Source: Escherichia phage Ecwhy_1. Taken from it: a stretch of 64,000 nucleotides of DNA. Below the pieces are notes generated by a model. That model saw nothing but the letters and a program-made list of their open reading frames with translations. It made no database searches and was not told the DNA's origin. Positions 10,790 to 25,559 of the stretch are shown one piece after another; position 1 is the first letter of the stretch; every line of letters begins with the position of its first letter. Position numbers and translations under genes: made by a program. Where the stretch lies: the sequence record MH791411.1, one strand, 5' to 3'.

Positions 10790-10878
10790 TTTTGTATTCC
10801 TTAAATTAATATGTTGTCTTGATAAAATCTATTATGCCAGTACTATCAAACTATGTCAATAGTACTGTGATAATATTT

Positions 10879-11319: not shown

Positions 11320-11400
11320 TTTCCTTGTAGTGGGGAGAACCATTTTCTCCCCTTGATGTAATGTATTATACTTTATTCGATTTACTTTGCAAGTACTTTT
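11320..11400 (-). promoter_or_regulatory. PeSL-like cassette
   Basis: promoter + GGGGAGAAAATGGTTCTCCCC hairpin; precedes unannotated ~47-aa Cys-containing ORF (MKTCQCGQK..) at ~11176-11319. Confidence 0.5.
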
Positions 11401-11628
11401 TTAATTTAATTCATCAAGGCAAAGGATACGCTCAACGCCCAAATCAGTTAAACTAATCGACGGCACTTGATAGGTTTCAATGTATGCTACACTTGCCCAC
11501 TGACCGAACTCATTAACGGCCCAGGTATTCATTGCATTTTGCAATTCCGCACCTTCCTTGTTGGTAATGACTGCAACTACTTGTTCGTTGCCAGTAGTAC
11601 CAGATACGCGAGTAATGATAATAGCCAT
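11401..11628 (-). CDS. hypothetical protein (75 aa)
   Basis: trimmed to MAIIITRV. Confidence 0.55.
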   Translation of the reverse strand: MAIIITRVSGTTGNEQVVAVITNKEGAELQNAMNTWAVNEFGQWASVAYIETYQVPSISLTDLGVERILCLDELN

Positions 11629-11720
11629 TGTTTTGATTCCTTTGATTTGGAAGGAGAACCGTTTCCCCCTCTCGATGTAAAACATTATACGCTAATCTCT
11701 TAATCGTGCAAGTACTTTTT
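11629..11720 (-). promoter_or_regulatory. PeSL-like cassette
   Basis: promoter + GGGGGAAACGGTTCTCC hairpin. Confidence 0.6.
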
Positions 11721-11869
11721 ATTACTTTTTGCAAAATACTTTAAACGCTCTCAATCGCGTTCTTACAGCCTTAACGCCACCAGCTAGGGCAATGCATCAG
11801 ATAATCAGTTTAATGCGTTAGAATCGTTTCTAGGCGGTGCTGGTGGCATGGTAAACGATAAACACAAAA

Positions 11870-11913
11870 AAGCCCACCGTTTAAGGTGGGCTAGTGATTC
11901 AGTACTTTAATTG
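11870..11913 (-). terminator. rho-independent terminator
   Basis: GCCCACC-TTAAAC-GGTGGGC hairpin + TTTTTT on minus strand after stop. Confidence 0.7.
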
Positions 11914-12396
11914 TTATGCTTCAACTTTGCGATGAGATTCGATCCATTCCTCGCGAGTCATACCGCTGGCGTTAATCGCGTCCAGTACTACCGCAATGCA
12001 GTTACCACGCACCGGAATCAGATATTCTTCCCCGTTGTCCAGTACTACCGCTACGCGTTCCTGAATCCATTTTTTGGCTTTTACTTCTGGCTTGTCTTCC
12101 CCATACTTAACCGCCAGGGCTTTTTGTGCCATCTCTGTAACTACTTCCAGATCCAATCCAACTACTGCCGCCTGAATACTTTCGATTGTTGCTTGTAGTT
12201 CTGCTTCACGGGCCGCCTTTGCCGCTTCAATTTCTGCCGCTTTATTTGCTTGTAGTTCTTTCGCAGTACTGTACGCGATGTTAAAATTATTGCGTACCGC
12301 TTTCATGGTATCGTTATCCAGTTCAGCCAGGATCTCAGCCGCGACGTTAGTTTCATTTGCTACCAGTGCTTTGATGAATGATTTTACATTAGCCAT
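11914..12396 (-). CDS. hypothetical protein (160 aa), Ala/Glu-rich
   Basis: track ORF starts at TTG; ATG (MANVKSF) follows GAGGA SD. Confidence 0.6.
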   Translation of the reverse strand: MANVKSFIKALVANETNVAAEILAELDNDTMKAVRNNFNIAYSTAKELQANKAAEIEAAKAAREAELQATIESIQAAVVGLDLEVVTEMAQKALAVKYGEDKPEVKAKKWIQERVAVVLDNGEEYLIPVRGNCIAVVLDAINASGMTREEWIESHRKVEA

Positions 12397-12599
12397 TTTA
12401 TAAATCCTCAATTAAAGTTTAGTTTACGTTTATTAGTGTATCAAAGTTTTCTCGACGTGTCCAGTTTTTCGTTCGACTTACTGGCGGTCTACTTAGTGCT
12501 CCCCGTCTTGATGTAATACATTCTACGCTTTTCTGCGGTAATGTCAACTACTTTCTTAAAACTATTTTCAAAGTATCTCAGTACTACGATACTACAAAA

Positions 12600-12629
12600 A
12601 CAAAAAAGCCCACCAGGTGGGCTATGTAC
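12600..12629 (-). terminator. rho-independent terminator
   Basis: GCCCACC-TGGTGGGC hairpin + T-run (minus). Confidence 0.65.
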
Positions 12630-12860
12630 TTAATCAGTGAGTAAAATATTAAACACTTTACCATTTAACGTTATTGGTGCACTGCTACCAGGCACAAGAT
12701 CCGTTAGTATACCTGCAATCGCTTTATCATTGGCTACCTTTCCAGTGTCCAACAGTACTACAGTACTGATAAGATTAACGCTCGTTTCAATATCATAATG
12801 CACGGCGTTAAGTAGTTGTGTAGTACTGCTTTCGTTAAGTAAAACAATTCGCTTAGTCAT
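12630..12860 (-). CDS. hypothetical protein (76 aa)
   Basis: ORF track. Confidence 0.55.
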   Translation of the reverse strand: MTKRIVLLNESSTTQLLNAVHYDIETSVNLISTVVLLDTGKVANDKAIAGILTDLVPGSSAPITLNGKVFNILLTD

Positions 12861-12881
12861 GATGTTACCCCGTAGTATCTA

Positions 12882-13181
12882 TCAACGGCAATTAATAACG
12901 CCGGTATGAGTTACTTTCTCGGTATCCATTACAGTGACCGAACCGCGTTTAGCACTGGCATCATAATAAATTGTCGTGCTACCGTTTTCGTCTTCTTCAT
13001 GGAACGGGCCGTTTTTAAATGCTTCCGGCTGGATCTCTAAATCCTTTAATACAATCTCGCCAGTTCTTTCATCGGTCATTGCAACAGTGCACTGAATGAA
13101 TTTTTCACTACTTACATCTAATGACGCATTAACAGCGAAAGAGGAAACAGATAAAGCCAGGGCGATGATTGCAATTTTCAT
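12882..13181 (-). CDS. secreted hypothetical protein (99 aa)
   Basis: N-terminal signal-peptide-like MKIAIIALALSVSSFAVNAS. Confidence 0.6.
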   Translation of the reverse strand: MKIAIIALALSVSSFAVNASLDVSSEKFIQCTVAMTDERTGEIVLKDLEIQPEAFKNGPFHEEDENGSTTIYYDASAKRGSVTVMDTEKVTHTGVINCR

Positions 13182-13265
13182 TTGATTATCCTTAGTTACC
13201 AGGGGAAACCGTTTCCCCTTGCGATGTAAAATATTATACAGTACTAAAAACTAATTGCAAGTACT
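13182..13265 (-). promoter_or_regulatory. PeSL-like cassette
   Basis: promoter + GGGGAAACGGTTTCCCC hairpin. Confidence 0.6.
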
Positions 13266-13502
13266 TTATGATTTTTTATAAAACATTTCAGCAGTGATAT
13301 TTTTACCCGTTGGCTGTACTTTATCCAGAATTTTTTGATGCCCTGGTCGTCCAAAGGAATATGATCCGTAAACAGTAAACCAGTAGTTACCCTCAGTGTT
13401 TACATGTACAGCACAATAAGGAACACCACGCGATTCATCACTAGTAAAGTGTGATACCGTTCCCGTTACATTCGCAGACGTTGATTTGATTTGTTCGACC
13501 AT
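13266..13502 (-). CDS. hypothetical protein (78 aa)
   Basis: ORF track. Confidence 0.6.
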   Translation of the reverse strand: MVEQIKSTSANVTGTVSHFTSDESRGVPYCAVHVNTEGNYWFTVYGSYSFGRPGHQKILDKVQPTGKNITAEMFYKKS

Positions 13503-13580
13503 TTTCTTATTCCTTAGTTACCAGGGGAACCGCTCCCCCTATGCAAAACATTATACGCGTTTAAAAACTAATTGCAAGTA
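13503..13580 (-). promoter_or_regulatory. PeSL-like cassette
   Basis: promoter + GGGGGAGCGGTTCCCC hairpin. Confidence 0.6.
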
Positions 13581-13610
13581 TTTTAATAAAAAGTATTTGA
13601 AAAATAGTTG

Positions 13611-13680
13611 TTGACAAGTGCATCCAGTACTGGCATAATTACTACATCAAGACGAAACAGTCACTAACCCACCGGGTGCC
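13611..13680 (+). promoter_or_regulatory. plus-strand sigma70-type promoter + conserved box
   Basis: TTGACA-N17-CATAAT on plus strand, ACCCACCGGGTGC box ~30 nt downstream. Confidence 0.5.
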
Positions 13681-13745
13681 GAGATCCGTCTATTAAATGA
13701 TTCAGTACTGAAAAAGTAACGGGGAGTTATTATCTCCCCGTGTTG

Positions 13746-13967
13746 TTATTTTGTAAGGTATAAACAGAAGTCGCCTTTATTTGCTACGCCGCCAGTGTAA
13801 CGCGAGGAATAGTTAGAAACGTCCTGGACTTCTGCTATTACCAGGGTATCATCATTCAATTCGTCGCAGAAGCAAACGGCTGGATCTTGTACGCCGATTT
13901 TGTCGGCATGTTCCCGCATAGATTTAACCAGTGCTTCCAGTTGGGAAAGAGTAGTGATATTAGCCAT
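13746..13967 (-). CDS. hypothetical protein (73 aa)
   Basis: trimmed to MANITTL. Confidence 0.55.
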   Translation of the reverse strand: MANITTLSQLEALVKSMREHADKIGVQDPAVCFCDELNDDTLVIAEVQDVSNYSSRYTGGVANKGDFCLYLTK

Positions 13968-14051
13968 TTTATTTTCCTCATTACCAGGGAGAACCATTTC
14001 TCCCTTTGATGTAAACCATTATACAGTACTGAAAACTAATTGCAAGTACTT
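13968..14051 (-). promoter_or_regulatory. PeSL-like cassette
   Basis: promoter + GGGAGAAATGGTTCTCCC hairpin. Confidence 0.6.
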
Positions 14052-14240
14052 TTAATTAAATTCCATAAAATCATTTTCAACGTGCACAACAATCTGATTA
14101 TTTTTAAAGGACGCAGAAAACTCTATACAATCATAAACCGCTTTTTCTGTTACCAGACTATGAGCACCAATCGGATTAATTGGGGATTGAATTGTTTCAA
14201 TCTCGTTACCTTGTTCATTAACGATTAAAATATTAAACAT
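14052..14240 (-). CDS. hypothetical protein (62 aa)
   Basis: ORF track. Confidence 0.5.
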   Translation of the reverse strand: MFNILIVNEQGNEIETIQSPINPIGAHSLVTEKAVYDCIEFSASFKNNQIVVHVENDFMEFN

Positions 14241-14279
14241 TGCCGTTACTCCTGGATAGTGTTAACTCGATATAAAGTA

Positions 14280-14462
14280 TTATACGCCTTTATTGCTTAG
14301 TGTCCAGTGATCACGCATCATACGCCCCGCACGATCCCAGCTAGTAGGCATGGGTATGCCTTGCAATTCGTTAGGGGAGATCTCGACCTCGATCCCTACA
14401 TCAATAACAGTCATTCCAGCTTTCGCAGCTTGCTCGCGGATAACCTCAGATAATGTTGTCAT
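14280..14462 (-). CDS. hypothetical protein (60 aa)
   Basis: ORF track; leader duplicated from the 14052 gene. Confidence 0.5.
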   Translation of the reverse strand: MTTLSEVIREQAAKAGMTVIDVGIEVEISPNELQGIPMPTSWDRAGRMMRDHWTLSNKGV

Positions 14463-14536
14463 GATTAAAGCTCCTGGATAGTGTTAACTCGATATAAAGT
14501 ATTATACAGTACTGAAAACTAATTGCAAGTACTTTT

Positions 14537-14797
14537 TTAATATTGTTTGTCGTCGTCTTCCTCGATGAATTGACCGACGAAATGATCTACTTTCGCTTTG
14601 AGGCTTTTATAATCTTCTTCTACTTCCGTTAAACGTTCCTGGTAGTATTCCAATGCTTCAAGATACGCCGCCTCAGCAGTTTTTGCACGCATAGCTAAAT
14701 TCATTCCACGCGTTTCATCAAATAGCCAATAACCATCGGTGCACTGGCTAATAGATAATGACTTGCTTAGTACTGTATAGCTAATTACTTTACTCAT
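14537..14797 (-). CDS. hypothetical protein (86 aa)
   Basis: ORF track; GAGGG SD after GGCGGGTAATAGTTCCCGCC hairpin. Confidence 0.6.
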   Translation of the reverse strand: MSKVISYTVLSKSLSISQCTDGYWLFDETRGMNLAMRAKTAEAAYLEALEYYQERLTEVEEDYKSLKAKVDHFVGQFIEEDDDKQY

Positions 14798-14854
14798 TAG
14801 ATAACCCTCAGTAAAGGCGGGAACTATTACCCGCCATTATCTCAGTACTGAATA

Positions 14855-15094
14855 TTACATTCCAACCATTGCAGCACGGATCGCAGTAGTGCTATACTTA
14901 AAGCCGTCCGGCGTTGTAGTAGTACCGTTGGCTTTTAATCTGCGGTACATACATTCCGCAGCAATATCTTTAGTTCTACTTTGTGCGATGCAACTTTGAG
15001 CAAGCCGATACAATGACTCACCGTTATTAATCCAAAGGCTTACATTCCAATGAGTTTTGTTTTTGTGTCCGTTGTAAGTTTTAGTACTAGCCAT
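14855..15094 (-). CDS. hypothetical protein; paralog of 16895-17134
   Basis: shared HKNKTHWNVSLWINN..PDGFKYSTTAIRAAMVGM; trimmed to MASTK. Confidence 0.6.
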   Translation of the reverse strand: MASTKTYNGHKNKTHWNVSLWINNGESLYRLAQSCIAQSRTKDIAAECMYRRLKANGTTTTPDGFKYSTTAIRAAMVGM

Positions 15095-15184
15095 TTTTAA
15101 ATCCTCGTTTGAGCGGGGAACCACTCCCCGCCTCGATATAAAGTATTATACGCTTTTAAACTTAGTTTGCAAGTACTTTTTAAA
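15095..15184 (-). promoter_or_regulatory. PeSL-like cassette
   Basis: promoter + CGGGGAGTGGTTCCCCG hairpin. Confidence 0.6.
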
Positions 15185-15796
15185 TTAATATTCGATTGAT
15201 TCCACTACGCCATCAATAACATTGAATTGATACTCGTTACCCTCAATCAGTGCCGTAATGTTTTCAGTAGTGAATTGATCCTCATATGCATTCTCTAAAT
15301 CACGGTACAACTTGCGGGACAATTCACGAATAGTTTCAGTGAGTAGTTCCTCAAGCTCATTAACTAACGTTTCTTGTTTTGCGGTTAAATCAGTGTAAGC
15401 CGATTCAATGTACCCGCTTACAGTATTCTCATGCGAGTAGTGGGAGTGCGAACGTTTTACACTCATCGCCAAATCATCTTCATTCAGCAAGTGACGGATT
15501 GAGCGATACTTAGTTAATGCTCTTACCTTGCGTAAAAACTTCACTGCGTCAACGTGGTCAGTACTGATTGATGCACCGTCACCCTGGGACCAAAAACCAC
15601 TGAATTGTATTTCAGCGTCATTAATGCCATATTCCGGTAGTACTGTTTCTTTATAGTATTCAATTTCACTTTCAGAAAAATAATTGTCGTTTGAGTTTTT
15701 TTCACGTTCCCGAACCAGTTCGATAGCTGACGTTTGTTGTTCTGCGTTCAATTCAGAAAAAGCCATAACATAAGTAGTAGTAGTGATAGTTTTCAT
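15185..15796 (-). CDS. hypothetical protein (203 aa)
   Basis: ORF track; ATG after GAGGGT SD. Confidence 0.65.
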   Translation of the reverse strand: MKTITTTTYVMAFSELNAEQQTSAIELVREREKNSNDNYFSESEIEYYKETVLPEYGINDAEIQFSGFWSQGDGASISTDHVDAVKFLRKVRALTKYRSIRHLLNEDDLAMSVKRSHSHYSHENTVSGYIESAYTDLTAKQETLVNELEELLTETIRELSRKLYRDLENAYEDQFTTENITALIEGNEYQFNVIDGVVESIEY

Positions 15797-15825
15797 TTTG
15801 TAACCCTCATTCAGTAGTTGATGTA

Positions 15826-15960
15826 AGTATTATACGCTTTTAAAAACATTTGTCAAACTATTTTATCAGGGGAGTTTTTCGTGTGCCTTACTCCTGGGCT
15901 ACTTAACGGGAAGTTACTTATTTCGTTCCCCGTCCTGATGTAAAACATTATACGCCTTTA
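15826..15960 (-). repeat. duplicated structured leader, copy B
   Basis: near-identical to 4601-4740. Confidence 0.6.
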
Positions 15961-16020
15961 AACATAGTTTGCAAGTACTTTTTAAAAATAGTTTTCAGTA
16001 CTGAATAGTAAAAAAAAGTA

Positions 16021-16081
16021 TTGACAGCATTATCAAGTACTGGTATAATATACCCCATGACAACAGCTAACCCACCGGGTG
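16021..16081 (+). promoter_or_regulatory. plus-strand consensus sigma70 promoter + conserved box
   Basis: TTGACA-N17-TATAAT (perfect consensus), ACCCACCGGGTGC box downstream. Confidence 0.6.
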
Positions 16082-16223
16082 CACAATTGTAACTATACTA
16101 AACTAATTTTTCTATAGATACACTCCCGCACCCTATGGGCTACGGCTTATCTGCCAATGAATACATTATGCCAGTACTGACAAAATAAGTCAATACCGGC
16201 AATTGTAAAGATTTGTAAACTGC

Positions 16224-16460
16224 TTATACTGCAATCGCGTCCAGGCTATAATAATAATAAGTGCCGTATTGGTGTACTTTATTACCTTTTATTTCAGTAC
16301 TGAATGAATCCGAACGGTTTGCATATGATGTTAATTTAAAGTACTTTGATTTGCTGATACGTTGCCATACACCACAGATCCGCTGTAAGTAAGTAGTTTT
16401 ATTCGTGGTAGTATCTTTTACGGTTTTAACTTCAGTCATATACATATTAGTCATTTTCAT
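16224..16460 (-). CDS. hypothetical protein (78 aa)
   Basis: ORF track; GGAG SD. Confidence 0.55.
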   Translation of the reverse strand: MKMTNMYMTEVKTVKDTTTNKTTYLQRICGVWQRISKSKYFKLTSYANRSDSFSTEIKGNKVHQYGTYYYYSLDAIAV

Positions 16461-16541
16461 TACTCCAGGTTATAGGCGGGAAGAGTTCCCGCTCTCGATG
16501 TAAAACATTATACGCCATTAAACATAGTTTGCAAGTACTTT
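16461..16541 (-). promoter_or_regulatory. PeSL-like cassette
   Basis: promoter + GCGGGAACTCTTCCCGC hairpin. Confidence 0.6.
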
Positions 16542-16808
16542 TTATTCAAGTACTGCAATCTTTTTAGTACGGTACACGGTCACGCGGTTGCCCTTTCGGT
16601 CGAGCTTTATTTCTACCACTCGACGCGATACACTATCGGGACTTTTTAAGGCCGCTAACCAGTACTGTAATGATCTGGCGGTACTACGCTTTACAATGGC
16701 CCAACGTTTACCACGTTCCGATTGTACGCCCATATCTTTAAACGTTGCCCCGTCCTGGCGTGCGGCGATCCGAGCTTGTTCACGCGTCGCAAAATACTTA
16801 ATTTTCAT
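16542..16808 (-). CDS. hypothetical protein; paralog of 3132-3527
   Basis: trimmed to MKIKYFATREQ. Confidence 0.6.
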   Translation of the reverse strand: MKIKYFATREQARIAARQDGATFKDMGVQSERGKRWAIVKRSTARSLQYWLAALKSPDSVSRRVVEIKLDRKGNRVTVYRTKKIAVLE

Positions 16809-16894
16809 GCTGTTGCCCTTATCGTTGGTGTATGAATAAAACACTATTATAAAGTACTATCGCAAAAAAATGATAGTACTTTAAATAAATTCTA

Positions 16895-17134
16895 TTACAT
16901 TCCAACCATCGCCGCACGGATCGCAGTAGTGCTATATTTGAATCCGTCCGGTGTTTTATCTTGTCCAGTCTGTTCTAAAAATAACATCATATGACGGGCC
17001 GCATCATTGCGATTAGTGCTATCGTTAATAAAGTCCTGGGCCAACCGATACAATCCCTCATCGTTATTAATCCAAAGGCTTACATTCCAATGAGTTTTGT
17101 TTTTGTGACCTAAGAACATTTTTGATTTAGCCAT
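16895..17134 (-). CDS. hypothetical protein; paralog of 14855-15094
   Basis: trimmed to MAKSKMF. Confidence 0.6.
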   Translation of the reverse strand: MAKSKMFLGHKNKTHWNVSLWINNDEGLYRLAQDFINDSTNRNDAARHMMLFLEQTGQDKTPDGFKYSTTAIRAAMVGM

Positions 17135-17227
17135 TTTTTTAATCCTCTTATATAGTGGGGAACTATTCCCCACCTGATGTAAAACATTATACGCCATTAA
17201 ACATAGTTTGCAAGTACTTTATTAAAC
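17135..17227 (-). promoter_or_regulatory. PeSL-like cassette
   Basis: promoter + GGGGAATAGTTCCCC hairpin. Confidence 0.6.
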
Positions 17228-17590
17228 TTATTTGTAAATTTTGCCACTGTCAGCCCATACCAGGAAACGAGGCATATTATCCCATGCATCTTGTTTTAAG
17301 TTTAAGCCGTGCAATTCCTCAGTTGTTGCCATCCCTGGTACTGGCTTACTACACACCGCGAAATTTTCGCCCATATACTGATAAACCATCGTCAAATCAT
17401 TTGAGATCATTATATGGATCATTGAATCCAGCATCAAAGTAGCGGCGTATTGTTCACGCTTAAGCGGCAACATTGCAATAAGTTCCCGATAAGCTGCAAT
17501 GTGAATTTTTACAGTTTCAGCCGGAAGACCTTTCATCTCATCGCGGAAGTTTACCAGGTTAAGCATGATTTTATTGATTTGAGTCGCCAT
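17228..17590 (-). CDS. hypothetical protein (120 aa)
   Basis: trimmed to MATQINK. Confidence 0.6.
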   Translation of the reverse strand: MATQINKIMLNLVNFRDEMKGLPAETVKIHIAAYRELIAMLPLKREQYAATLMLDSMIHIMISNDLTMVYQYMGENFAVCSKPVPGMATTEELHGLNLKQDAWDNMPRFLVWADSGKIYK

Positions 17591-17650
17591 CGTTTTAATC
17601 TCTCTTAATGTGTAGCGGGAAGTGTTCCCGCTCTCGATGTAAAACATTAT
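17591..17650 (-). promoter_or_regulatory. PeSL-like cassette
   Basis: promoter + GCGGGAACACTTCCCGC hairpin. Confidence 0.6.
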
Positions 17651-17702
17651 ACGCTTTTATCAGTACGGTGCAAGTACTTTCTACAAATACTTTTAAAATA
17701 GT

Positions 17703-17795
17703 TTTCTTTCTATATAGGAGTACTATTATTCAGTACTGCAATCATCCAGGGGAACTATCTTTCTATATAGGAGTACTATTATTCAGTACTGAATC
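17703..17795. repeat. two tandem copies of a ~33-bp direct repeat
   Basis: CTTTCTATATAGGAGTACTATTATTCAGTACTG repeated with ~53-bp period. Confidence 0.7.
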
Positions 17796-17953
17796 AATCC
17801 ACTAAATCATCCCTATACCCCGTAAAACGTCCTCAGACGCATTCTAACGCATTAATACACATAAGCTATACATTTGCACCATTCCAATCATTCCAGGGCT
17901 TTACAGGCCGTTTAAACGCGTTAAATTATTTTCAATTATTTTGTTTTTAGGTA

Positions 17954-18025
17954 TTGACTTGATCCTGAAAAAGCGTATAATTACTACATAGACGCGAGAA
18001 AGCGGATACCCCAGGGGGTGGGAAG
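17954..18025 (+). promoter_or_regulatory. plus-strand sigma70-type promoter
   Basis: TTGACT-N16/17-TATAAT. Confidence 0.5.
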
Positions 18026-18169
18026 ATCCGTCCAAAATTCAAGATATAAAAAAAGGATACACTCCCGCACCCTAGCAGGTAAACGCACTTTCTCAGTACT
18101 GAAATATAGTACCATAGTCCGGCCCAGGATAGCAAGCAAATTAATTAAAACTTTTTTGCTTCCAGGGTA

Positions 18170-18237
18170 TTGCTTTATTTTTCCAGTACTGTATAATAGT
18201 TCCATCAAGTCGAGAAAGACTCAAGCCCACCGGGTGC
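18170..18237 (+). promoter_or_regulatory. plus-strand sigma70-type promoter + conserved box
   Basis: TTGCTT-N16-TATAAT, GCCCACCGGGTGC box downstream. Confidence 0.5.
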
Positions 18238-18294
18238 ATAGTTACGCCCAAAATTCAGTACTGAAAAAATTTTTAAAAATATCCGGCCAGGCCG

Positions 18295-18323
18295 TTGACA
18301 TTGCCCCCAGTTTATAAGATAAT
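18295..18323 (+). promoter_or_regulatory. plus-strand sigma70-type promoter
   Basis: TTGACA-N17-GATAAT. Confidence 0.45.
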
Positions 18324-18420
18324 GATTCCAGATTCAGAAAAATCTAACACCAGATACTGCGGGGAAACTATCCCCACGCGGTAGGGGAACTATTGGAAAA
18401 AACAAAATAAAATTTTGATT

Positions 18421-18612
18421 TAGCCGTCTATACTTCCAGACGTGTAACCATCTAGCCGTTTAGCCGTCCAAACGTCTAGCCATCCAGCCATCCAGAAATC
18501 TAGCCGTTTAGCCGTCTAGATGGATAGCCATCTTTACTTCCAGACTTCTGGAGGGCTAGACATATCTACGCCCAAAATCCATCCAGGGTAACTACGCCCA
18601 AAATCCGTCAGT
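18421..18612. repeat. iteron-like array of interleaved short direct repeats
   Basis: TAGCCGT x5, CCATCCAG x3, CTACGCCCAAAATCC x2, ACTTCCAGAC x2; locally GC-richer. Confidence 0.65.
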
Positions 18613-19629
18613 ACTATACCATAGATCTATCTTTTGAAAGGGAGTATTCAGTACTGCCATCATAGCCCTCACTATGTTACCCTAGGAGGATGAAGACCAT
18701 CATGTAGTACTGAATACTGTTAGAGGGAATCCACCAGCTTGTGCTGGTGGCATAATGCTTTAGATTAAAATCAGTACTGACACCATTCTGTTAATATCAG
18801 TACTGTTATTACGATTTTCATATGAGGTTCAAAAAGATGTACCACCACAGGAGGAACTATCTTTTCTGTACTGTCTCACGACAGGAGGTAGAGTAAATGA
18901 ATTGTTCGCAGCAACTCATCACCCTATGTAGAACATTATACAGTACTGAATCATAAAGTCAATAACTTTCTTTCATCTTTCAGTACTGATATTCTTGAGA
19001 ACTACCCGACTACAAACATCATTATATCCCACAAATCATAAACGTCCCAACGTAAATTTCAACTTTCGAAGATCCAACTTTTATTTCATAGGTACTCCAA
19101 AATTTTTAGGATCGAGATTTAGGATGGAGTACTAACCAACTTTTTGCTGGAGCCTCAAGGGGTAATGGAATTTTACCCCGAAGGGTAAAGGGGTAATTGA
19201 AATTAAGGTGAAAGTAATAATTCAGTACTAATCATTGCGTGATTACTTTTGATTACATTTGATGTAATTTGCAAAATGGAAAAGGAGCTTGGAAACTACA
19301 AAGTACGGCAGACTTCCTCTGCCTACTTAGTGGGATATCGCCACCTTCAGTACTGAATACTTTTAGGGCAGTACTGAATCCTTCCCTAGCATTCTTGAGT
19401 AATCTTGTCTATAATAATCAGTACTGAATCATATATAATCATTCTGTGATTCTACGGTGCTCATATAAATGTTTATATATGATTACTTATGACTACATAT
19501 GATTACGGGGTTTAGCCTGGGGAGAATCCTAGTGATCGCATTTGTCCAGGCTGAATTTTAACAATTCTTCTAATTGTTAAAGCCTGTCCAATGCTTTCCC
19601 TGCGGAGCTTCCCCTGTCTATATGTTGAA

Positions 19630-19836
19630 TTACTTCCTATATATAAGCATTAACATATAGTAGTACTGATTATGCTGTACATTCTCTTTAATATTATAAG
19701 GGTCTATAGCAATCTCGGTACATCTGTTAAATGCATATCTATTAAATGCCAGTACTATTATAGATCTAATCCATGCTTGGTCAGTCGGTGGTAGTTTACT
19801 TATATAGTACTCTTTATAGTTTTTTATGTTCTGCAT
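19630..19836 (-). CDS. small paralog family member (68 aa)
   Basis: family: N-term M-N-x-K-E-(F/Y)-Y, C-term hydrophobic ..LIYR-like. Confidence 0.6.
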   Translation of the reverse strand: MQNIKNYKEYYISKLPPTDQAWIRSIIVLAFNRYAFNRCTEIAIDPYNIKENVQHNQYYYMLMLIYRK

Positions 19837-19847
19837 AGTATACCTTA

Positions 19848-20039
19848 TTATTTCAAAGTACCATATAGTACTCTTAATAGGAAGTAGTACGTATTAGAGA
19901 TATCATTAGTAGTTAAAACAATCTTTGTACACATATTAAATTCGTATTGAGTCATTGCCAGGGGGATTAAATTGTTAACCCATGCTTGTTCGTTTTCTTT
20001 TAGTTTACTTATATAGAAATCTTTATGTTCTTTATTCAT
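19848..20039 (-). CDS. small paralog family member (63 aa)
   Basis: MNKEHKDFY..; tightly packed with neighbours. Confidence 0.6.
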   Translation of the reverse strand: MNKEHKDFYISKLKENEQAWVNNLIPLAMTQYEFNMCTKIVLTTNDISNTYYFLLRVLYGTLK

Positions 20040-20241
20040 ATAGGAATAGTATACCTATGATGCCGGAGTACATATTAGTACTGTTATTATTGTCGTTTGC
20101 GTTTAAAGTCATTTGAATACAATTATTGTAGCATACTCTGCCGAAATAAGTATCAGTACTTAAAGGTGCTGTAGTCCTTAGAAACATTTGTTCTGTGGGG
20201 CTGAGGTGTTTGGAGTAGAATTCTTTATGTTCTTTATTCAT
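20032..20241 (-). CDS. small paralog family member (69 aa)
   Basis: MNKEHKEFY.. Confidence 0.6.
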   Translation of the reverse strand: MNKEHKEFYSKHLSPTEQMFLRTTAPLSTDTYFGRVCYNNCIQMTLNANDNNNSTNMYSGIIGILFLYE

Positions 20242-20246
20242 ATTAG

Positions 20247-20432
20247 TTAGTGTCTGTATATAAGTAATAGTAAGAATACGTACTGCACCTGTTCATCTTT
20301 AGTATTGAGTACTGTACGTATTGCGTCATGGAACAAGAATATAGTACTTGGGTCATTAGAATTTAAGGGGTTTACGGGGACGGCGTGTTTGTAGTTCCCT
20401 TTAACAAATTGTGTGTAGTATTCTCTATGCAT
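20247..20432 (-). CDS. small paralog family member (61 aa)
   Basis: MHREYYTQF.. Confidence 0.6.
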   Translation of the reverse strand: MHREYYTQFVKGNYKHAVPVNPLNSNDPSTIFLFHDAIRTVLNTKDEQVQYVFLLLLIYRH

Positions 20433-20433
20433 A

Positions 20434-20622
20434 TCAGTACCTATATATTAGGGCGAGAATGTAGTACAGTTTATATGTATTATAATCTGGGTTGATAGCA
20501 CATAGTGTGTGGTAGTGGAATTGTTTGGTATTTTTCTTATCCTTGATATCTATTGGGTTTAGTGGTATAAGCATTTGGGAGTTTAGTTCCAGATGGTTTA
20601 AGTAGAATTCTTTGTTATTCAT
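20434..20622 (-). CDS. small paralog family member (62 aa)
   Basis: MNNKEFYLNHL.. Confidence 0.6.
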   Translation of the reverse strand: MNNKEFYLNHLELNSQMLIPLNPIDIKDKKNTKQFHYHTLCAINPDYNTYKLYYILALIYRY

Positions 20623-20821
20623 AGAAGAATATTAGTCCCATTACGCCTGAGTACTGAATATTTTTGTTATTGTTTTCTAAAGCTTCTAGAGTAATACGTA
20701 TACAATTATTAAAGCAATCTCTGGCGTGTGGTGTATCTAAACTTAAAGGTGATACACTCCTTAGAAACATTTGTTCTGATGCACTGAGGTGTTTGGTGTA
20801 AAATTCTTTCTGTTCGTTCAT
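20615..20821 (-). CDS. small paralog family member (68 aa)
   Basis: MNEQKEFYTKHL.. close paralog of 20032 gene. Confidence 0.6.
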   Translation of the reverse strand: MNEQKEFYTKHLSASEQMFLRSVSPLSLDTPHARDCFNNCIRITLEALENNNKNIQYSGVMGLIFFYE

Positions 20822-20831
20822 ATTGGCCTCT

Positions 20832-21020
20832 TTAGTACACGAAAGCTAGGTACAGGGTATGATACAGTACTCGATGATAGCTATCAAAATCTAGTATACA
20901 TGCTTTAGTGCACATAGTAAAGTACACTTTATCGTTTTGAGCATTGATACCGCGAGGTTTATCTAATAGATTAGTACTGAGGTACATTGGGAAATATTTT
21001 GTGTAGTATTCTTTATGCAT
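20832..21020 (-). CDS. small paralog family member (62 aa)
   Basis: trimmed to MHKEYYTKYF. Confidence 0.55.
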   Translation of the reverse strand: MHKEYYTKYFPMYLSTNLLDKPRGINAQNDKVYFTMCTKACILDFDSYHRVLYHTLYLAFVY

Positions 21021-21021
21021 A

Positions 21022-21210
21022 TTAGTACCTGAATATAAGTAGGATAGTGTTATATAATTGGTCATAGCTACTACTATTTTCTATACTGCGTTCTATGCAA
21101 TTATTGAATCCCAGTACTGCCAAATCGTTATCCAGGGGGACTTTATATCTGGCGTAGTGTTCAAAAATACTGGGGAGAAATTGTGTGTAGTATTCTTTGT
21201 GGTTGTTCAT
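21022..21210 (-). CDS. small paralog family member (62 aa)
   Basis: MNNHKEYYTQF.. Confidence 0.6.
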   Translation of the reverse strand: MNNHKEYYTQFLPSIFEHYARYKVPLDNDLAVLGFNNCIERSIENSSSYDQLYNTILLIFRY

Positions 21211-21211
21211 A

Positions 21212-21403
21212 TTAGTACTTATATATTAGTAAAAGGATGTGATACAGTACTCTATTATAGTCCTCAATATCTATCGAGGATTTAGTGCACTTAATGAAAT
21301 AGTCTTTTTCGTAGTCTTTTTCTATACTCAATTGTTTTGTTGGTACAAGGTGTTGGAGATACATTGGGAGTTTCTCTATGTAGTATTCTTTGTGGTTATT
21401 CAT
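21212..21403 (-). CDS. small paralog family member (63 aa)
   Basis: MNNHKEYYIEKL.. Confidence 0.6.
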   Translation of the reverse strand: MNNHKEYYIEKLPMYLQHLVPTKQLSIEKDYEKDYFIKCTKSSIDIEDYNRVLYHILLLIYKY

Positions 21404-21411
21404 ATTATGTG

Positions 21412-21585
21412 TTATTTCGTGAAAACAAGGGTTAGTACTGCATAGTACAAGTCATACGTATCTTTAGGGTTAATAGCACCTTTAATACATTCTTTCATTA
21501 CTTCATTATAGATAATTTTAGTACTGAATGTATTGGATGTTACTATATCGGAATTAAGGTACGAGAGGTAGAATTCTTTATACAT
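21412..21585 (-). CDS. small paralog family member (57 aa)
   Basis: trimmed to MYKEFYLSYL. Confidence 0.5.
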   Translation of the reverse strand: MYKEFYLSYLNSDIVTSNTFSTKIIYNEVMKECIKGAINPKDTYDLYYAVLTLVFTK

Positions 21586-22237
21586 AGTTTGTAATATACG
21601 TAATGAGGTGATGAAATTTCTTATCAGTACTGATAAGTTCCTGTACATGTTTTGTTAGTTTGTACGCGTTTTTATAGAGTCCTGGATTATCGATTACAGT
21701 ACTGTACATGAATTCTTCTTCCTCGGATAATTCTTTGTGTTCTAGTTCTTTGAGGAATTGCAGTACTGTATCAGTTTCGTTAGTACGTTGCTTTTGGAAG
21801 AAGTGCATGTTATCGTGTATTTTTTCTGAACCCATGCAGTACATATCGCCGATTTGGAATTGTGCAGTACTGATATCATGGGTGCTATTACAATTCCCGA
21901 AGAAGTATACATTCCCGAAAGATAGAATTATAGTGCACGGGATATTATCCATGTGTATATAGATAGATGCATTCTTTAGTGCTTTTGTGCTGGTATTAGT
22001 ACTCAATACTTTTAAATCAGTATTATAGATATTAATAAAAGCAAGAGCTATATTATTTTTCTTCAAGTACGATTTGAGGTTCTTAGATACGAGAACATTT
22101 CTGGATTTTTTCTTTTTATTTCGTTTCTTTAGTACATTTGGGTCGTAAGTATATACTGGTGTAAAAGATTCTGCTTGAATACTGTTGAGGTATTTAAAGT
22201 GCTTAAGGTATTGTTTACTGTGTGCATTAAGTTTCAT
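21578..22237 (-). CDS. hypothetical protein (219 aa) embedded in small-paralog array
   Basis: ORF track; no recognisable motif. Confidence 0.55.
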   Translation of the reverse strand: MKLNAHSKQYLKHFKYLNSIQAESFTPVYTYDPNVLKKRNKKKKSRNVLVSKNLKSYLKKNNIALAFINIYNTDLKVLSTNTSTKALKNASIYIHMDNIPCTIILSFGNVYFFGNCNSTHDISTAQFQIGDMYCMGSEKIHDNMHFFQKQRTNETDTVLQFLKELEHKELSEEEEFMYSTVIDNPGLYKNAYKLTKHVQELISTDKKFHHLITYITNYV

Positions 22238-22248
22238 TTGGTTTTCCT

Positions 22249-22428
22249 TTATACAGATGCGAGAGCGAGGATTTCCCTGAAGGGATTATCTTTTGTTAGT
22301 GCGTGATGAATGCAGCTATTGAGATTAATATTTTTAGTACTGTTAGTTGCCAGGTTGTAGTACTTCACGAAGGTGTCGTACATGAAACGGTCTTTAATGC
22401 TTATGTGTTCTATATAGTATTCTTGCAT
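22249..22428 (-). CDS. small paralog family member (59 aa; below track cutoff)
   Basis: MQEYYIEHISIKDRF..; AAGGA SD; coordinates anchored to neighbouring ORF. Confidence 0.45.
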   Translation of the reverse strand: MQEYYIEHISIKDRFMYDTFVKYYNLATNSTKNINLNSCIHHALTKDNPFREILALASV

Positions 22429-22436
22429 ATTATTCC

Positions 22437-22625
22437 TTACATAGAGATGAGTTTCAGTACATCAATATACATATAACGTTCAGATGACATTACACGGGTA
22501 GTGATAATCTCAATCGATATATTTTTAATTCCATGTGCAGATGATTGATGGTGCTGAATAAATGAGTTGTGCATACTTTGTTCTATGTGGTTTAGTTTAT
22601 TGAAGTAGTACTCAAAAGTGTTCAT
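22437..22625 (-). CDS. small paralog family member (62 aa)
   Basis: MNTFEYYFNKL..YIDVLKLISM. Confidence 0.6.
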   Translation of the reverse strand: MNTFEYYFNKLNHIEQSMHNSFIQHHQSSAHGIKNISIEIITTRVMSSERYMYIDVLKLISM

Positions 22626-22632
22626 GTCTACC

Positions 22633-22812
22633 TTAGATTGAGATTAGTTTAAGTACTTCTCTGTACGTGTACTTTTCGTTTTGTGCTTCTACTGTACATG
22701 ATAGTAGGTATCGTTTTTTATCTCTTTTGTTCCCGACTGTGTAGTACCTTTGGAATTTATTATAGTTGTATCTATCTTTGTGCTGGAGGTTATAGATATA
22801 GAATTCTTGCAT
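22633..22812 (-). CDS. small paralog family member (59 aa; below track cutoff)
   Basis: MQEFYIYNLQHKDRY..YREVLKLISI. Confidence 0.45.
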   Translation of the reverse strand: MQEFYIYNLQHKDRYNYNKFQRYYTVGNKRDKKRYLLSCTVEAQNEKYTYREVLKLISI

Positions 22813-22820
22813 AGAGTACC

Positions 22821-23006
22821 TTATATTGCTATCAGTTTGAGTACTTCAATATATGTGCGGTACTCTGCTTTAATTAAATTTGTACACACTGTAAGGGAAT
22901 TTCTTTGTATAAGTTTATTGCCGCTTTTATACGCATTTCTCCACACATAGAGATGAGATCTTTCAGGCATAGATAGTTTATTTGTATAGTACTCAAATGT
23001 ATTCAT
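22821..23006 (-). CDS. small paralog family member (61 aa)
   Basis: MNTFEYYTNKL..YIEVLKLIAI. Confidence 0.6.
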   Translation of the reverse strand: MNTFEYYTNKLSMPERSHLYVWRNAYKSGNKLIQRNSLTVCTNLIKAEYRTYIEVLKLIAI

Positions 23007-23014
23007 ATATTACC

Positions 23015-23197
23015 TCAAATAGAGATTAGTTTAAGTACTTCTCTGTATGTGTACTTTTCGTTTTGTGCATCTCTTGTGCTTGTATATAGGTATCCTCGAC
23101 GATATTTGTTGCTCCCGTTCTTGTAGTTGAATTCGAACTTATTGTAGATGAATCTATCGCCAGGCTGTAATTTACTTAAGTACAATTCAATGCTCAT
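23015..23197 (-). CDS. small paralog family member (60 aa)
   Basis: trimmed to MSIELYLSKL; ..YREVLKLISI. Confidence 0.55.
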   Translation of the reverse strand: MSIELYLSKLQPGDRFIYNKFEFNYKNGSNKYRRGYLYTSTRDAQNEKYTYREVLKLISI

Positions 23198-23207
23198 AGT
23201 ATTCTCT

Positions 23208-23393
23208 TTACATATCAATAAGTTTCAGTACTGCTCTGTACGTGTACTTAGTTGTTAGTGCTTCTTTTATAGCAATACAGAAGTAATGTTGTTTGTCTCT
23301 TATACTACCGCGTTTGTAGTACCATACATTGGAGTTGTGGGTGTACTTGTCCCTGTCGGATAGATTTAGGTAATAGTATAATATATGATTCAT
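23208..23393 (-). CDS. small paralog family member (61 aa)
   Basis: ..YTYRAVLKLIDM. Confidence 0.6.
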   Translation of the reverse strand: MNHILYYYLNLSDRDKYTHNSNVWYYKRGSIRDKQHYFCIAIKEALTTKYTYRAVLKLIDM

Positions 23394-23602
23394 GGTAATG
23401 TAATTAGCCTTATTATGTTAAAGTACTCGGTCCCTGGTACACCTTGTAGAATATTATCAACTACATTTTCTTGGTGCAGGATTAATACATTCGGTGCGGT
23501 TCTTTTAAGGTTTTTTAAAGTACTGTATTCTTGTTTAAGGATGAACTGTACATCTTTAGGGAGAATATCTAAGTAGTACTGGTGTATGTTCATAGTTTTC
23601 AT
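23390..23602 (-). CDS. small paralog family member (70 aa)
   Basis: MKTMNIHQYY.. Confidence 0.55.
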   Translation of the reverse strand: MKTMNIHQYYLDILPKDVQFILKQEYSTLKNLKRTAPNVLILHQENVVDNILQGVPGTEYFNIIRLITLP

Positions 23603-23613
23603 ATAGTACTCTT

Positions 23614-23799
23614 TTAGAACTTAAAGATGAGGTTCATGATAGATAAGTACTTAGTTTCAGGAAATTGATGTTCTATTGCATAACGTGTCTCCAGTCTGAA
23701 GTCAAATTTATAAAAGGGACTATTCATATCCATAGGTTCATTGGGAAATGAATCTCTGTATTGTTTGTGCAGCTTACTACAGTAGAATTCTTTATACAT
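23614..23799 (-). CDS. small paralog family member (61 aa)
   Basis: MYKEFYCSKL.. Confidence 0.6.
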   Translation of the reverse strand: MYKEFYCSKLHKQYRDSFPNEPMDMNSPFYKFDFRLETRYAIEHQFPETKYLSIMNLIFKF

Positions 23800-23800
23800 A

Positions 23801-24013
23801 TTAGTGCTCGATTAAAAGGGTTAGGATGTAATAGTATTGCATACTTTCTACCCCTTGTACAGCATTTCTTATTTTATTATTCCTGTACGAGTTCAAGAGT
23901 TTAGGACAATGTTTGAAGTTTATATAATTATTTTGTGTATACAGTAGGCTTTCTCGTAGACCTTTTGTTGGTAGTGCATCGATGTAGTACTGTTCAATGT
24001 TCATAGTGTTCAT
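23801..24013 (-). CDS. small paralog family member (70 aa)
   Basis: MNTMNIEQYY.. Confidence 0.6.
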   Translation of the reverse strand: MNTMNIEQYYIDALPTKGLRESLLYTQNNYINFKHCPKLLNSYRNNKIRNAVQGVESMQYYYILTLLIEH

Positions 24014-24237
24014 AGAGCTACCAGTACTAAGATTTTTGATAATTGTTTGTTTCTATCCCCGCAGATGTTGTTGTGTAAAATGCTCACTACAAGGGTATCA
24101 AGTGCATTGTTCAGCATAAGGTTACATCCAGTACTGTTATATTTTTTTAGCTCAATTAGCCACGAACAATCCGCGAGAAATTTCCCGTACTCTAGTTCAT
24201 TTAGCGTATTAATGTAGTACTTAAGTGTAGTTGTCAT
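24010..24237 (-). CDS. small paralog family member (75 aa), first gene of array
   Basis: MTTTLKYYINTL..; AAGGAG SD; early-type promoter upstream. Confidence 0.6.
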   Translation of the reverse strand: MTTTLKYYINTLNELEYGKFLADCSWLIELKKYNSTGCNLMLNNALDTLVVSILHNNICGDRNKQLSKILVLVAL

Positions 24238-24300
24238 GTGTAGTTCTCCTTATATTCCTTCTATAGTACACCAGTACTGAAAGGATGTCAAGGGTTTTGT
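24238..24300 (-). promoter_or_regulatory. early-type promoter of small-paralog array
   Basis: minus strand TTGACA-N17-TACTAT then AAGGAG. Confidence 0.55.
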
Positions 24301-24343
24301 TTATGGGGTATAAATATGATATAATGAATAAAGGAGAAGAAAT
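24301..24343 (+). promoter_or_regulatory. late-type promoter candidate of RCC1-like array
   Basis: TATAAATA (T4 late -10 consensus) ~28 nt before ATG, then AAGGAG. Confidence 0.5.
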
Positions 24344-25492
24344 ATGTTACCTTTTGTTAGAATGTTTGATTATGGGAATGAAGCACCTACCAACTCTGGG
24401 CGTTTTAAAATATATTCCAGTGATTCTATGTATCTTCATGATACTTATACTGACAAGTTGTATGCATCTTCTGCGACGAATTGGGGTACTGGTACAGGTG
24501 TAGCATCGAGTAAATTTATTCTTTGTGCGGAGAATGTTAAACGAGTTCTATTGGAAGATAACAGTAGTGATTGTCAATTGTATGAAGAGAAAGGTACTGG
24601 AAAAGTTTTTATCACTGGTAACACGAAGGCATTCACTGGTGTAACTGATAGAAAAACTTTGTGGACGGACTGTACTACGTGGATAACATCAAGTGGTATT
24701 AATGTTTCTGATATAAAATACATGAGTAGTTTTTATGATATGAAGGTGAATTTGATAACAAACGATGGTACATTGTATTGTTGTGGAGCTAACAATATAT
24801 CGAACATATCATCATTTGGTGATGGCACAAACATTAATTCTTTTAACACATTCAAAAGAGTAGATACTATAACTTCGGTTAAAAAGGCAGTTGGTAACAT
24901 TTATTTGCGAGAAGATAATACTTTATGGGGTTGTGGTTTTAACTATTACTACCAGTTGGGCACGGGTAATCAAACTTCTATTACTGGGGTGACGATGATT
25001 TCTTCGGATGTTATAGATTTTAATGTAAGTTATCAGAGTACATTTTTTATCAAATCGGATAATAATTTGTACGCTTGTGGTAAACAGTTCGGTGCACAAT
25101 ATGGGAACGAATTTGGTACAGGTGGTACTTCTACATCTACAGATATACAATATAAAACTCCCACATTATTGAGTGCAGGTGTTTATAGTTTATATACTTG
25201 TGTTGGTAACATGGCATCACATATAGTTAAAGGTGATGAAGTACTTTATGCATCTGGAAGCAACTCGTCTGGTCAATTAGGTGTTGGTAATAATAATAAT
25301 CAGTACTCCTATACTCCTTCATATACTTCGTTTAATACCTCTTGTAATTTGGTACGCACCCCATCTGGTTCACTTATACTTACTGATACTGGAAAATTAT
25401 ATTATTGTGGCCTTGCAATAGTAGTAATGGGTGGTATTTCTGGACAGAACGTTCTTAATTATACAGAAGTCGATATGTCATTTTTGCAGTAA
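24344..25492 (+). CDS. RCC1-like beta-propeller repeat protein, array member 1
   Basis: N-term MLPFVRMFDYGN; YYYQLGTGN and GQLGVGNN blade motifs. Confidence 0.85.
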   Translation: MLPFVRMFDYGNEAPTNSGRFKIYSSDSMYLHDTYTDKLYASSATNWGTGTGVASSKFILCAENVKRVLLEDNSSDCQLYEEKGTGKVFITGNTKAFTGVTDRKTLWTDCTTWITSSGINVSDIKYMSSFYDMKVNLITNDGTLYCCGANNISNISSFGDGTNINSFNTFKRVDTITSVKKAVGNIYLREDNTLWGCGFNYYYQLGTGNQTSITGVTMISSDVIDFNVSYQSTFFIKSDNNLYACGKQFGAQYGNEFGTGGTSTSTDIQYKTPTLLSAGVYSLYTCVGNMASHIVKGDEVLYASGSNSSGQLGVGNNNNQYSYTPSYTSFNTSCNLVRTPSGSLILTDTGKLYYCGLAIVVMGGISGQNVLNYTEVDMSFLQ

Positions 25493-25559
25493 ATTAATAT
25501 GCCAGTACTTGATACTGGCTTTTTTGATTAAATATAGTATAATGAATAAAGGAGGAAAT
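25493..25559 (+). promoter_or_regulatory. array intergenic cassette: terminator hairpin + TATAAT + AGGAGG
   Basis: GCCAGTAC-TTGA-TACTGGC + T-run, TTGATTAAATATAGTATAAT, AAAGGAGG. Confidence 0.65.

Follow-up and report, generated by a model that had tools for sequence, protein, structure and literature searches.

A tandem array of small, predicted helical paralogs at the edge of the terminal repeat of an Asteriusvirus jumbo coliphage: a candidate early operon of host-directed proteins

In the genome of Escherichia phage Ecwhy_1 (sequence record MH791411.1), the minus strand between positions 19630 and 24237 of the 64,000-nucleotide (nt) stretch that we analyzed, hereafter the window, carries 21 contiguous genes, g01 to g21, 20 of which encode products of 57 to 75 amino acids (aa) and one of which, g11, encodes a protein of 219 aa. 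According to our comparisons, these genes make up what appears to be an intact operon with a conserved promoter, located at the junction with the terminal repeat, whose small non-virion products form a constrained and diversified family of predicted helical proteins. As to its role, we favor the reading of an early operon, driven by the host RNA polymerase, of diversified host-protein binders serving takeover or counter-defence, to which we give a little less than an even chance. The source of the window is assigned, by nucleotide similarity, to a Rak2-like Asteriusvirus jumbo coliphage of the 121Q/PBECO4 group: a megablast search with window positions 19000 to 25000 returned 36 phage records, all from Escherichia or Salmonella jumbo phages of 310 to 386 kb, with WPEC5 as the best match (99.0% identity over 100% of the query) and with 121Q, PBECO4, and phAPEC6, members of the genus Asteriusvirus in the Rak2-like group, among the others. 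The "T4-type" frame in which a preliminary description of this DNA had placed the locus is thus only loosely apt. More than 80% of the genes of phAPEC6 have been reported as unassigned.

All 21 minus-strand open reading frames (ORFs) were confirmed at the coordinates given for them earlier, the starts of g07, g10, and g16 being refined from the WPEC5 annotation and from internal ATGs, and the earlier picture of about 20 tightly packed minus-strand genes of 57 to 75 aa holds, with 20 small genes and the single larger one. Altogether, 22 minus-strand ORFs of at least 55 aa occupy 97.8% of the 4608 bases, as opposed to a mean of 0.94 such ORFs (maximum 5) and a coverage of 4% (maximum 22%) in 1000 shuffles; ORF coverage of the opposite strand is just 13%. 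Neighboring genes either overlap by 4 to 8 nt or are separated by gaps of 1 to 11 nt, and the overlapping ones are probably translationally coupled. At several junctions, the ribosome-binding site of a gene is formed by the preceding gene's stop codon or penultimate Arg codon, as in ..TAT AGG TAC TGA T ATG and ..TAA GG.. ATG, and therefore the conserved C terminus may be partly constrained at the RNA level. The layout, with C-type genes (see below for the subfamilies A, B, and C) proximal to the promoter and followed by B-type genes, g11, and a run of A-type genes, is conserved across the nine phages from which our copy counts, orthogroups, and 153-member family alignment were drawn. Neither the rest of the window nor 45 kb of 121Q yielded further family members. 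Tandem Repeats Finder reported no period of ~190 bp in the array, since the paralogs are too diverged as DNA, and neither the window nor the non-coding stretch beside it gave a real hit in tRNA and Rfam scans.

That these ORFs are not translated, the region being non-coding or coding on the other strand, is an explanation to which we attach next to no probability. It could draw on the low G content of the coding strand (13.8%), on a first-codon-position GC skew of ~0 as against +0.35 to +0.51 in the neighboring genes, and on the lack of a good Shine-Dalgarno sequence in several A-type genes. However, the ORF statistics given above argue against it, as do the ratio of nonsynonymous to synonymous substitution rates (dN/dS), which is about 0.4 as against 1.13 in an out-of-frame control, and the confident structural model obtained from the family alignment; the G-poor coding strand and the local reversal of GC skew are explained by the extreme amino acid content of the products, which are rich in Tyr, Asn, Ile, and Leu and poor in Gly, Ala, and Val.

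Composition-corrected BLASTP, with E values as low as 1e-28 within subfamilies, divides the small proteins into three groups: subfamily A, comprising g01 to g10 and g19; subfamily B, comprising g12 to g17; and subfamily C, comprising g18, g20, and g21, the last of which is attached more loosely than the other two. These groups are themselves related. Alignment of the A and B profiles with hhalign gave a collinear full-length match (P = 1.7e-4), hidden Markov models (HMMs) built from single groups placed the members of the other groups first among the 748 ORFs of the window, and with an expanded A-type HMM all nine B and C members ranked in the top 3% against 200 composition-preserving shuffles, and four of them outscored every shuffle; the link between C and B comes mainly from g13 and g15. 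In the 153-member alignment, Tyr8 is invariant (153 of 153), Leu59 is conserved in 93% and Leu12 in 80%, and low entropy is confined to Tyr7, Tyr8, Leu12, Phe36, Cys39/Thr40, Ile44, Leu53/Tyr53, Ile56, Leu57, Leu59, and Ile60. Judged from these alignments, all 20 small proteins belong to one orphan superfamily by true homology, and the similarity, for which a purely compositional origin had to be considered, exceeds composition in the corrected BLASTP, the shuffled-HMM test, the hhalign comparison, and the invariant Tyr8. Identities of 20 to 40% between paralogs point to an ancient divergence. The preliminary description had recognized two subfamilies, one in each half of the array; in our hands there are three, interleaved within one superfamily, and the half at 22.2 to 24.2 kb, which it had treated as uniform, is mixed, with six B-type genes followed by C, A, C, and C.

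An AlphaFold2 model of g09, computed with a 20-sequence family alignment, reached a predicted local distance difference test (pLDDT) score of 89.2 and a predicted template modelling (pTM) score of 0.73, with helices predicted at residues 4-10, 14-17, 30-45, and 49-61 and a loop at 18-29. The conserved residues recur at i+3/i+4 spacing in the predicted helices, which fits a helix-packing core, and nearly all non-core positions exceed 3 bits of entropy in the 153-member alignment. The small proteins are accordingly predicted to consist of a four-helix core, to which Tyr7, Tyr8, Leu12, Phe36, Cys39/Thr40, Ile44, and a hydrophobic C-terminal helix would contribute, with hypervariable surface positions. 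Their composition is peculiar (Tyr 10.2%, Asn 9.3%, Leu 10.8%, Gly 1.9%), the Tyr content comparing with 4.5% in the neighboring early genes; Tyr is a residue enriched at binding surfaces. The isoelectric point (pI) spans 5.5 to 9.6. Neither a signal peptide nor a hydrophobic stretch of transmembrane length is visible in the sequences, and the small proteins are read as soluble. A profile search against 1.8 billion cluster representatives matched just 28 clusters, all of 59 to 69 aa, and by tblastn the family is confined to 35 records of Asteriusvirus-like Escherichia and Salmonella jumbo phages; no array product has a sequence match in Pfam, NCBIfam, PADLOC, or the PDB. We are thus dealing with a family that has a confident predicted fold and no known relative.

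The content of the array turns over rapidly. Copy number ranges from 15 to 20 per phage in the nine phages, and clustering at a minimum of 55% identity yields 41 orthogroups, only two of which, those of g12 and g04, are shared by the nine phages; the pairs g03/g06 and g14/g16 arose by recent duplication. Against the more distant phage JNE01, the flanks retain 84 to 99% nucleotide identity, whereas the array retains ~0 to 50% and mostly shows no detectable similarity, and for reciprocal-best pairs the synonymous divergence (dS) is 1.38 in the array versus 0.14 in the flank. This contrast leads us to regard the array as an exchanged or anciently polymorphic cassette which does not diverge at the pace of the genome. 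Published tables comparing fEgEco12 with the 97%-identical Ecwhy_1 are in keeping with a variable locus, in that eight array genes (fEgEco12 g598, g600, g601, g603, g605, g608, g609, and g611) are listed among 59 "completely absent" proteins and g597 is only 36.8% identical. The few differences between the window and WPEC5 within the array cluster at 21000-21400 (g08/g09) and 24000-24200 (g20/g21), and g09 is 100% identical to its WPEC3 counterpart and 88.9% identical to that of WPEC5, which suggests that short tracts of the array have undergone recombination or conversion.

At the same time, the copies are constrained. Pooled dN/dS is 0.36 to 0.46 in the array, 0.16 to 0.22 in the early genes of the upstream flank, and 1.13 in a spurious out-of-frame ORF; by site class, it is 0.20 for the core, 0.40 for non-core positions, and 0.48 for the variable loop, and no segment examined for positive selection (helices, loop, core, non-core) exceeded 1. 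These comparisons show a family which, to judge from its sequences, evolves by birth-and-death together with cassette exchange between phages, the individual copies remaining under purifying selection. They also bear on the idea that the array is a mostly dispensable "accordion" of tandem duplications, tolerated by the spare room in a jumbo capsid filled by headful packaging. The variable copy number and the relaxed constraint (0.4 versus 0.2 in the flanks) are what such an accordion would produce. However, each copy has kept its ORF intact and at the same length in all nine phages, dN/dS lies clearly below 1 with strongly conserved core residues, the promoter and the ribosome-binding site are invariant across the genus, and the paralogs are anciently diverged rather than fresh copies, all of which makes dispensability, in our judgment, unlikely.

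Upstream of g21, the minus strand carries a sigma70-type promoter at 24263-24291, consisting of TTGACA (24291-24286), a 17-nt spacer, and TACTAT (24268-24263), preceded by AAAACCC. No other strong promoter match occurs in the array. We aligned this region in eight phages, namely the window phage, 121Q, phAPEC6, PBECO4, SD-1_S14, A4, JNE01, and Turkey5, and found TTGACA, the 17-nt spacing, the upstream AAAACCC, and the ribosome-binding site TAAGGAGAA to be invariant, even in JNE01 and Turkey5, where identity to the array proteins of the window falls to ~30 to 60%; the coding sequence, by contrast, has diverged to ~40% aa identity. The Shine-Dalgarno sequence AAGGAG of g21 lies within TAAGGAGAA at 24246-24251 on the minus strand. 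The early-type promoter announced in the preliminary description at the head of the array is therefore present, canonical for the host, and conserved. The consensus TTGACA-N17-TAYNAT occurs nine times in the window where 0.32 occurrences are expected (28-fold), eight of the nine lying on the minus strand, the side of the small genes. At the other end, a terminator-like hairpin, GGCAGAGGAAGTCTGCC (19307-19323, minus strand), about 300 nt past g01, is a weak candidate for the operon end. In the related phage CBB, RpoD-like promoters with UP-like elements have been predicted to mark an early region of short genes, and in PA5oct rifampicin blocks infection and the genes of the terminal repeat are highly transcribed at 5 min. 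By analogy with these phages, and given the promoter type, we infer with good motivation that the array is expressed early by the host polymerase.

Following the presumed direction of transcription, the first genes are g21 (24010-24237; 75 aa), the promoter-proximal one, which overlaps by 4 nt with g20 (23801-24013; 70 aa); both are of subfamily C, as is g18 (23390-23602; 70 aa), which in turn overlaps by 4 nt with g17. Amid these C-type genes lies g19 (23614-23799; 61 aa), of subfamily A. The B block comprises g17 (23208-23393; 61 aa), g16 (23015-23197; 60 aa from the ATG at 23197), which is the recent duplicate of g14 (E ~1e-17), g15 (22821-23006; 61 aa), g14 (22633-22812; 59 aa), g13 (22437-22625; 62 aa), and g12 (22249-22428; 59 aa). 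After g11, the A block opens with g10 (21412-21585; 57 aa from an internal ATG), which overlaps g11 by 8 nt, and continues with the modelled g09 (21212-21403; 63 aa), g08 (21022-21210; 62 aa), g07 (20832-21020; 62 aa from an internal ATG), and g06 (20615-20821; 68 aa), the recent duplicate of g03 (E ~1e-25 to 1e-28). The remaining genes are g05 (20434-20622; 62 aa), which overlaps g06 by 8 nt, g04 (20247-20432; 61 aa), g03 (20032-20241; 69 aa), g02 (19848-20039; 63 aa), which overlaps g03 by 8 nt, and g01 (19630-19836; 68 aa), the last gene of the operon. All lie on the minus strand. The four subfamily A members tested matched phrog_11711, a family of function unknown, from end to end (g06, E = 7e-12; g19, E = 2e-15; g01, E = 3e-19; g09, E = 2e-24), and the B- and C-type proteins g14, g15, g18, g20, and g21 had no PHROG match at E <= 0.01; phrog_11711 hence spans subfamily A only and carries no functional information.

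The 219-aa gene g11 (21578-22237, minus strand), a member of phrog_29152 with a basic product (pI 9.3), is the one interruption that had been noted in the array, and its position between the B and A blocks is kept in every relative examined, namely 121Q, PBECO4, A4, JNE01, Turkey5, and a metagenomic relative. The gene is highly conserved at both ends and variable in the middle. The ends resemble the small proteins by eye, and we considered g11 as a family member carrying an insertion; this found no support in hhalign (P = 0.21). An AlphaFold2 model computed with 19 homologs reached a pLDDT of 38. A gene of similar length, encoding 216 aa on the minus strand at 37747-38397, interrupts the far end of the RCC1-like array described below, and its comparison with g11 (BLASTP E = 0.003, collinear; hhalign P = 0.012 over 143 columns) is suggestive only of a distant paralog.

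Divergently from the small genes, as the preliminary description had correctly seen, runs an array of RCC1-like genes, with twelve full-length (WD40_RLD) members at 24344-39599. The promoter-like stretch of the first of them, TATAAATATGATATAATGAATAAAGGAG (24309-24335, plus strand), stands back to back with the promoter of the small array. It includes the late-type motif TATAAATA, which is indeed present at 24309-24316 as had been claimed; however, it owes its existence to a TA insertion of 2 bp that none of the seven other aligned phages has (121Q, phAPEC6, PBECO4, SD-1_S14, A4, JNE01, and Turkey5), and the motif was not found before the other RCC1-like genes, where a GCCAGTACT..AGTACTGGC hairpin terminator with a T-run is followed by ATTAAATATAGTATAATGAATAAAGGAGG. 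From the second on, almost all RCC1-like genes are self-contained units of this kind, with a hairpin and T-run, ATTAAATATAGTATAATGAATAAAGGAGG, and a product starting with MLPFVRM. In the relatives, ATATGATATAATGAATA is conserved at the first RCC1-like promoter region although TATAAATA is not, and the related core TAAATAT is conserved across the aligned phages, so that late timing of the RCC1-like array may still apply. In the window as a whole, TATAAATA is depleted (3 copies, 13.7 expected), and each of the three is found a short way upstream of a correctly oriented gene, at 24309 on the plus strand and at 53118 and 54360 on the minus strand.

One alternative, raised in the preliminary description, is that the small proteins are cognate partners of the RCC1-like beta-propeller proteins, for which they might be chaperones, assembly factors, or inhibitors. 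The arrays adjoin and share a common intergenic region in every relative, including JNE01 and the metagenomic phage, hypervariability characterizes both, and g11 may be distantly related to the gene that interrupts the other array. The numbers of small and RCC1-like genes, however, neither pair nor co-vary (20 and 12 here, 16 and ~12 in 121Q, 18 and 11 in phAPEC6), and one sigma70 promoter serves the small array, as opposed to a separate terminator and a different motif for each RCC1-like gene. Furthermore, the published virion proteome of phAPEC6 (62 proteins) contains eight RCC1-like proteins and no small array protein, although a protein as small as 4.7 kDa is in the list. The presence of RCC1-like proteins in virions fits their late expression, although the T4 motif is not conserved. 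We consequently disfavor the partner idea and deem it very improbable.

The other flank of the array is the terminal repeat. The last 1.55 kb of the WPEC5 record match window positions 17758-19327, where that record stops, and therefore window positions 1-19327 correspond to a direct terminal repeat of ~21.7 kb; a terminal repeat of 20,993 bp has been reported for fEgEco12. The inner boundary deduced from the WPEC5 record end, at ~19327, falls on the hairpin at 19307-19323. A switch in GC skew near 20 kb coincides with this boundary. The array starts 303 bp past it, in unique sequence, and is thus adjacent to the repeat and not inside it; it keeps the minus-strand orientation of the repeat's small genes.

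Some features around this junction deserve mention in their own right. The ~2-kb stretch at 17600-19630 contains no annotated gene in 121Q, PBECO4, phAPEC6, or A4, and is among the most conserved DNA, being 84 to 99% identical even to JNE01. Both of its strands have strong promoter-like sites, and the stretch also contains ATGATTACAT repeats and 12 copies of the 8-bp repeat TAGCCGTC (18421-18519). Packaging, replication, or a non-coding RNA are possible functions. The palindrome CAGTACTG occurs 67 times in window positions 1-64000, where 0.83 copies are expected, for instance at 24272-24279; its sites lie in promoter spacers (TTGACAGTACT...AGTACTAT) and in the hairpin terminators of the RCC1-like genes and are dense at 17731-19426, and they may serve for protein binding or modification. 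Directly before the right terminal repeat (WPEC5 positions 355000-359610) there is a second, unrelated tandem array, with ~20 tightly overlapping minus-strand genes encoding paralogs of 65 to 90 aa with the motif (L)GTNYQ(E), so that arrays of small paralogs occur at both repeat junctions. Another small multigene family, of three tandem paralogs of 112 to 114 aa, is found on the minus strand at 49088-50123.

A different role can also be considered, in which the small proteins would be regulators that bind nucleic acids or RNA polymerase and tune the expression of phage or host genes or exclude superinfecting relatives. Proteins of ~60 aa that are all-helical in the g09 model would suit this role, subfamily B is strongly basic (pI 9.4 to 9.6 in four of six members), and the array lies beside the early region and the conserved 2-kb non-coding stretch, whose many CAGTACTG palindromes are possible operators. 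Several array members are acidic or neutral, however, and 20 variants with hypervariable surfaces and presence/absence variation are hard to square with a role in core regulation, and hence we regard this explanation, too, as improbable.

The reading which we prefer is that of early host-directed binders. Host sigma70 RNA polymerase would start at the promoter at 24291-24263 and read leftward through the 21 genes, the transcript running toward the weak hairpin at the edge of the terminal repeat with its other small early genes. The ~60-aa proteins would be made in the first minutes of infection and act as diversified intracellular binders, each paralog disabling or redirecting a different host protein, and the set carried by a given phage would help decide which strains are permissive. 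Host targets are proposed because of the analogy with the takeover modules of phages SPO1 and T5, the conserved core with a variable surface, a composition rich in Tyr, and the presence of some genes in one phage and not in another that is nearly identical. An early accessory function in takeover or anti-defence, as guessed before, would agree with the location beside the early-gene terminal repeat and with the fast turnover, and the function itself is to be read as tentative.

Several points weigh against this reading. Our searches gave no sequence or fold relative with a functional clue for the small proteins, and the same fold in subfamilies B and C is an assumption made from the model of g09 alone, a subfamily A protein. 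The end of the operon is uncertain, its terminator candidate being weak. The early timing is a deduction from the promoter type and from relatives only. As dN/dS is below 1 throughout, there is no direct arms-race signature at the level of orthologs. As regards the acr-aca type of anti-CRISPR locus, neither an Aca-like helix-turn-helix (HTH) regulator nor a Pfam, NCBIfam, or PDB match was found, no dedicated anti-defence library having been searched; PADLOC models defence systems and not counter-defence proteins, and its negative result has no bearing on this.

A bolder version can be formulated, according to which the array is a library of mini-binders, each ~60-aa four-helix paralog neutralizing a different strain-specific defence or housekeeping protein, and forms, together with the GTNYQ array, a two-armed, reshuffled host-range arsenal; we consider this possible and rather doubtful. 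The locus is among the most variable parts of otherwise near-identical genomes, and Asteriusvirus phages have been proposed as therapy against pathogenic E. coli. If the small proteins do bind host targets, the repertoire carried would go some way toward accounting for the host ranges of these phages, which are narrow and differ from one another, and the scaffold would offer 60-residue inhibitors of bacterial proteins already diversified by nature. A new protein family would be opened up by a structure or by an interaction map. Even if the array were dispensable, it would still be a clean case of jumbo-phage genome growth through tandem duplication.

Our search of the literature found no Asteriusvirus transcriptome, no infected-cell proteome or genetics for this locus, and no study that deals with the unity of the family, with its predicted fold or promoter, with its place beside the terminal repeat, or with its turnover; a one-line mention is all that it yielded on tandem arrays in 121Q. 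What is already known is that the genes are deposited as encoding hypothetical proteins and that subfamily A is a PHROG.

Among known systems, host-takeover modules come closest. The Bacillus phage SPO1 has such a module, gp37 to gp60, in its terminal redundancy, and phage T5 carries its pre-early genes in the terminal repeat. The array resembles these modules in having ~20 small genes at or next to a long terminal repeat, a host-type early promoter, and non-virion products, all of which were found here. It differs from them in that 20 of its 21 genes are paralogs of one family, whereas the modules consist of unrelated genes, in that it lies 303 bp outside the repeat, and in the absence of sequence similarity; host shut-off by the array is putative. 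A second parallel is provided by eukaryotic viruses: the MGF110, MGF360, and MGF505 multigene families of African swine fever virus (ASFV) and poxvirus gene "accordions" such as K3L have proven roles in host range and immune evasion. Like these families, the array shows tandem paralogs near a terminus, a content that varies among isolates, and birth-and-death with constrained copies, the marks of such a multigene family; the eukaryotic viral proteins are larger, and in the phage array the role is a proposed one and the paralogs are ancient, not recently amplified. The plastic regions of T4-like phages and the arrays of short anti-CRISPR or anti-defence genes likewise consist of packed, short orphan genes with early promoters which vary between relatives. 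Published work on crAss-like phages and archaeal viruses has similarly suspected blocks of small genes of targeting host defences. However, the anti-CRISPR and T4-like arrays are usually mixtures of unrelated genes, often with an HTH (Aca) regulator, and no such regulator or anti-defence homolog was found here. Small early accessory arrays are thus known, and an array consisting almost wholly of ~20 paralogs of one orphan fold is unusual among them.

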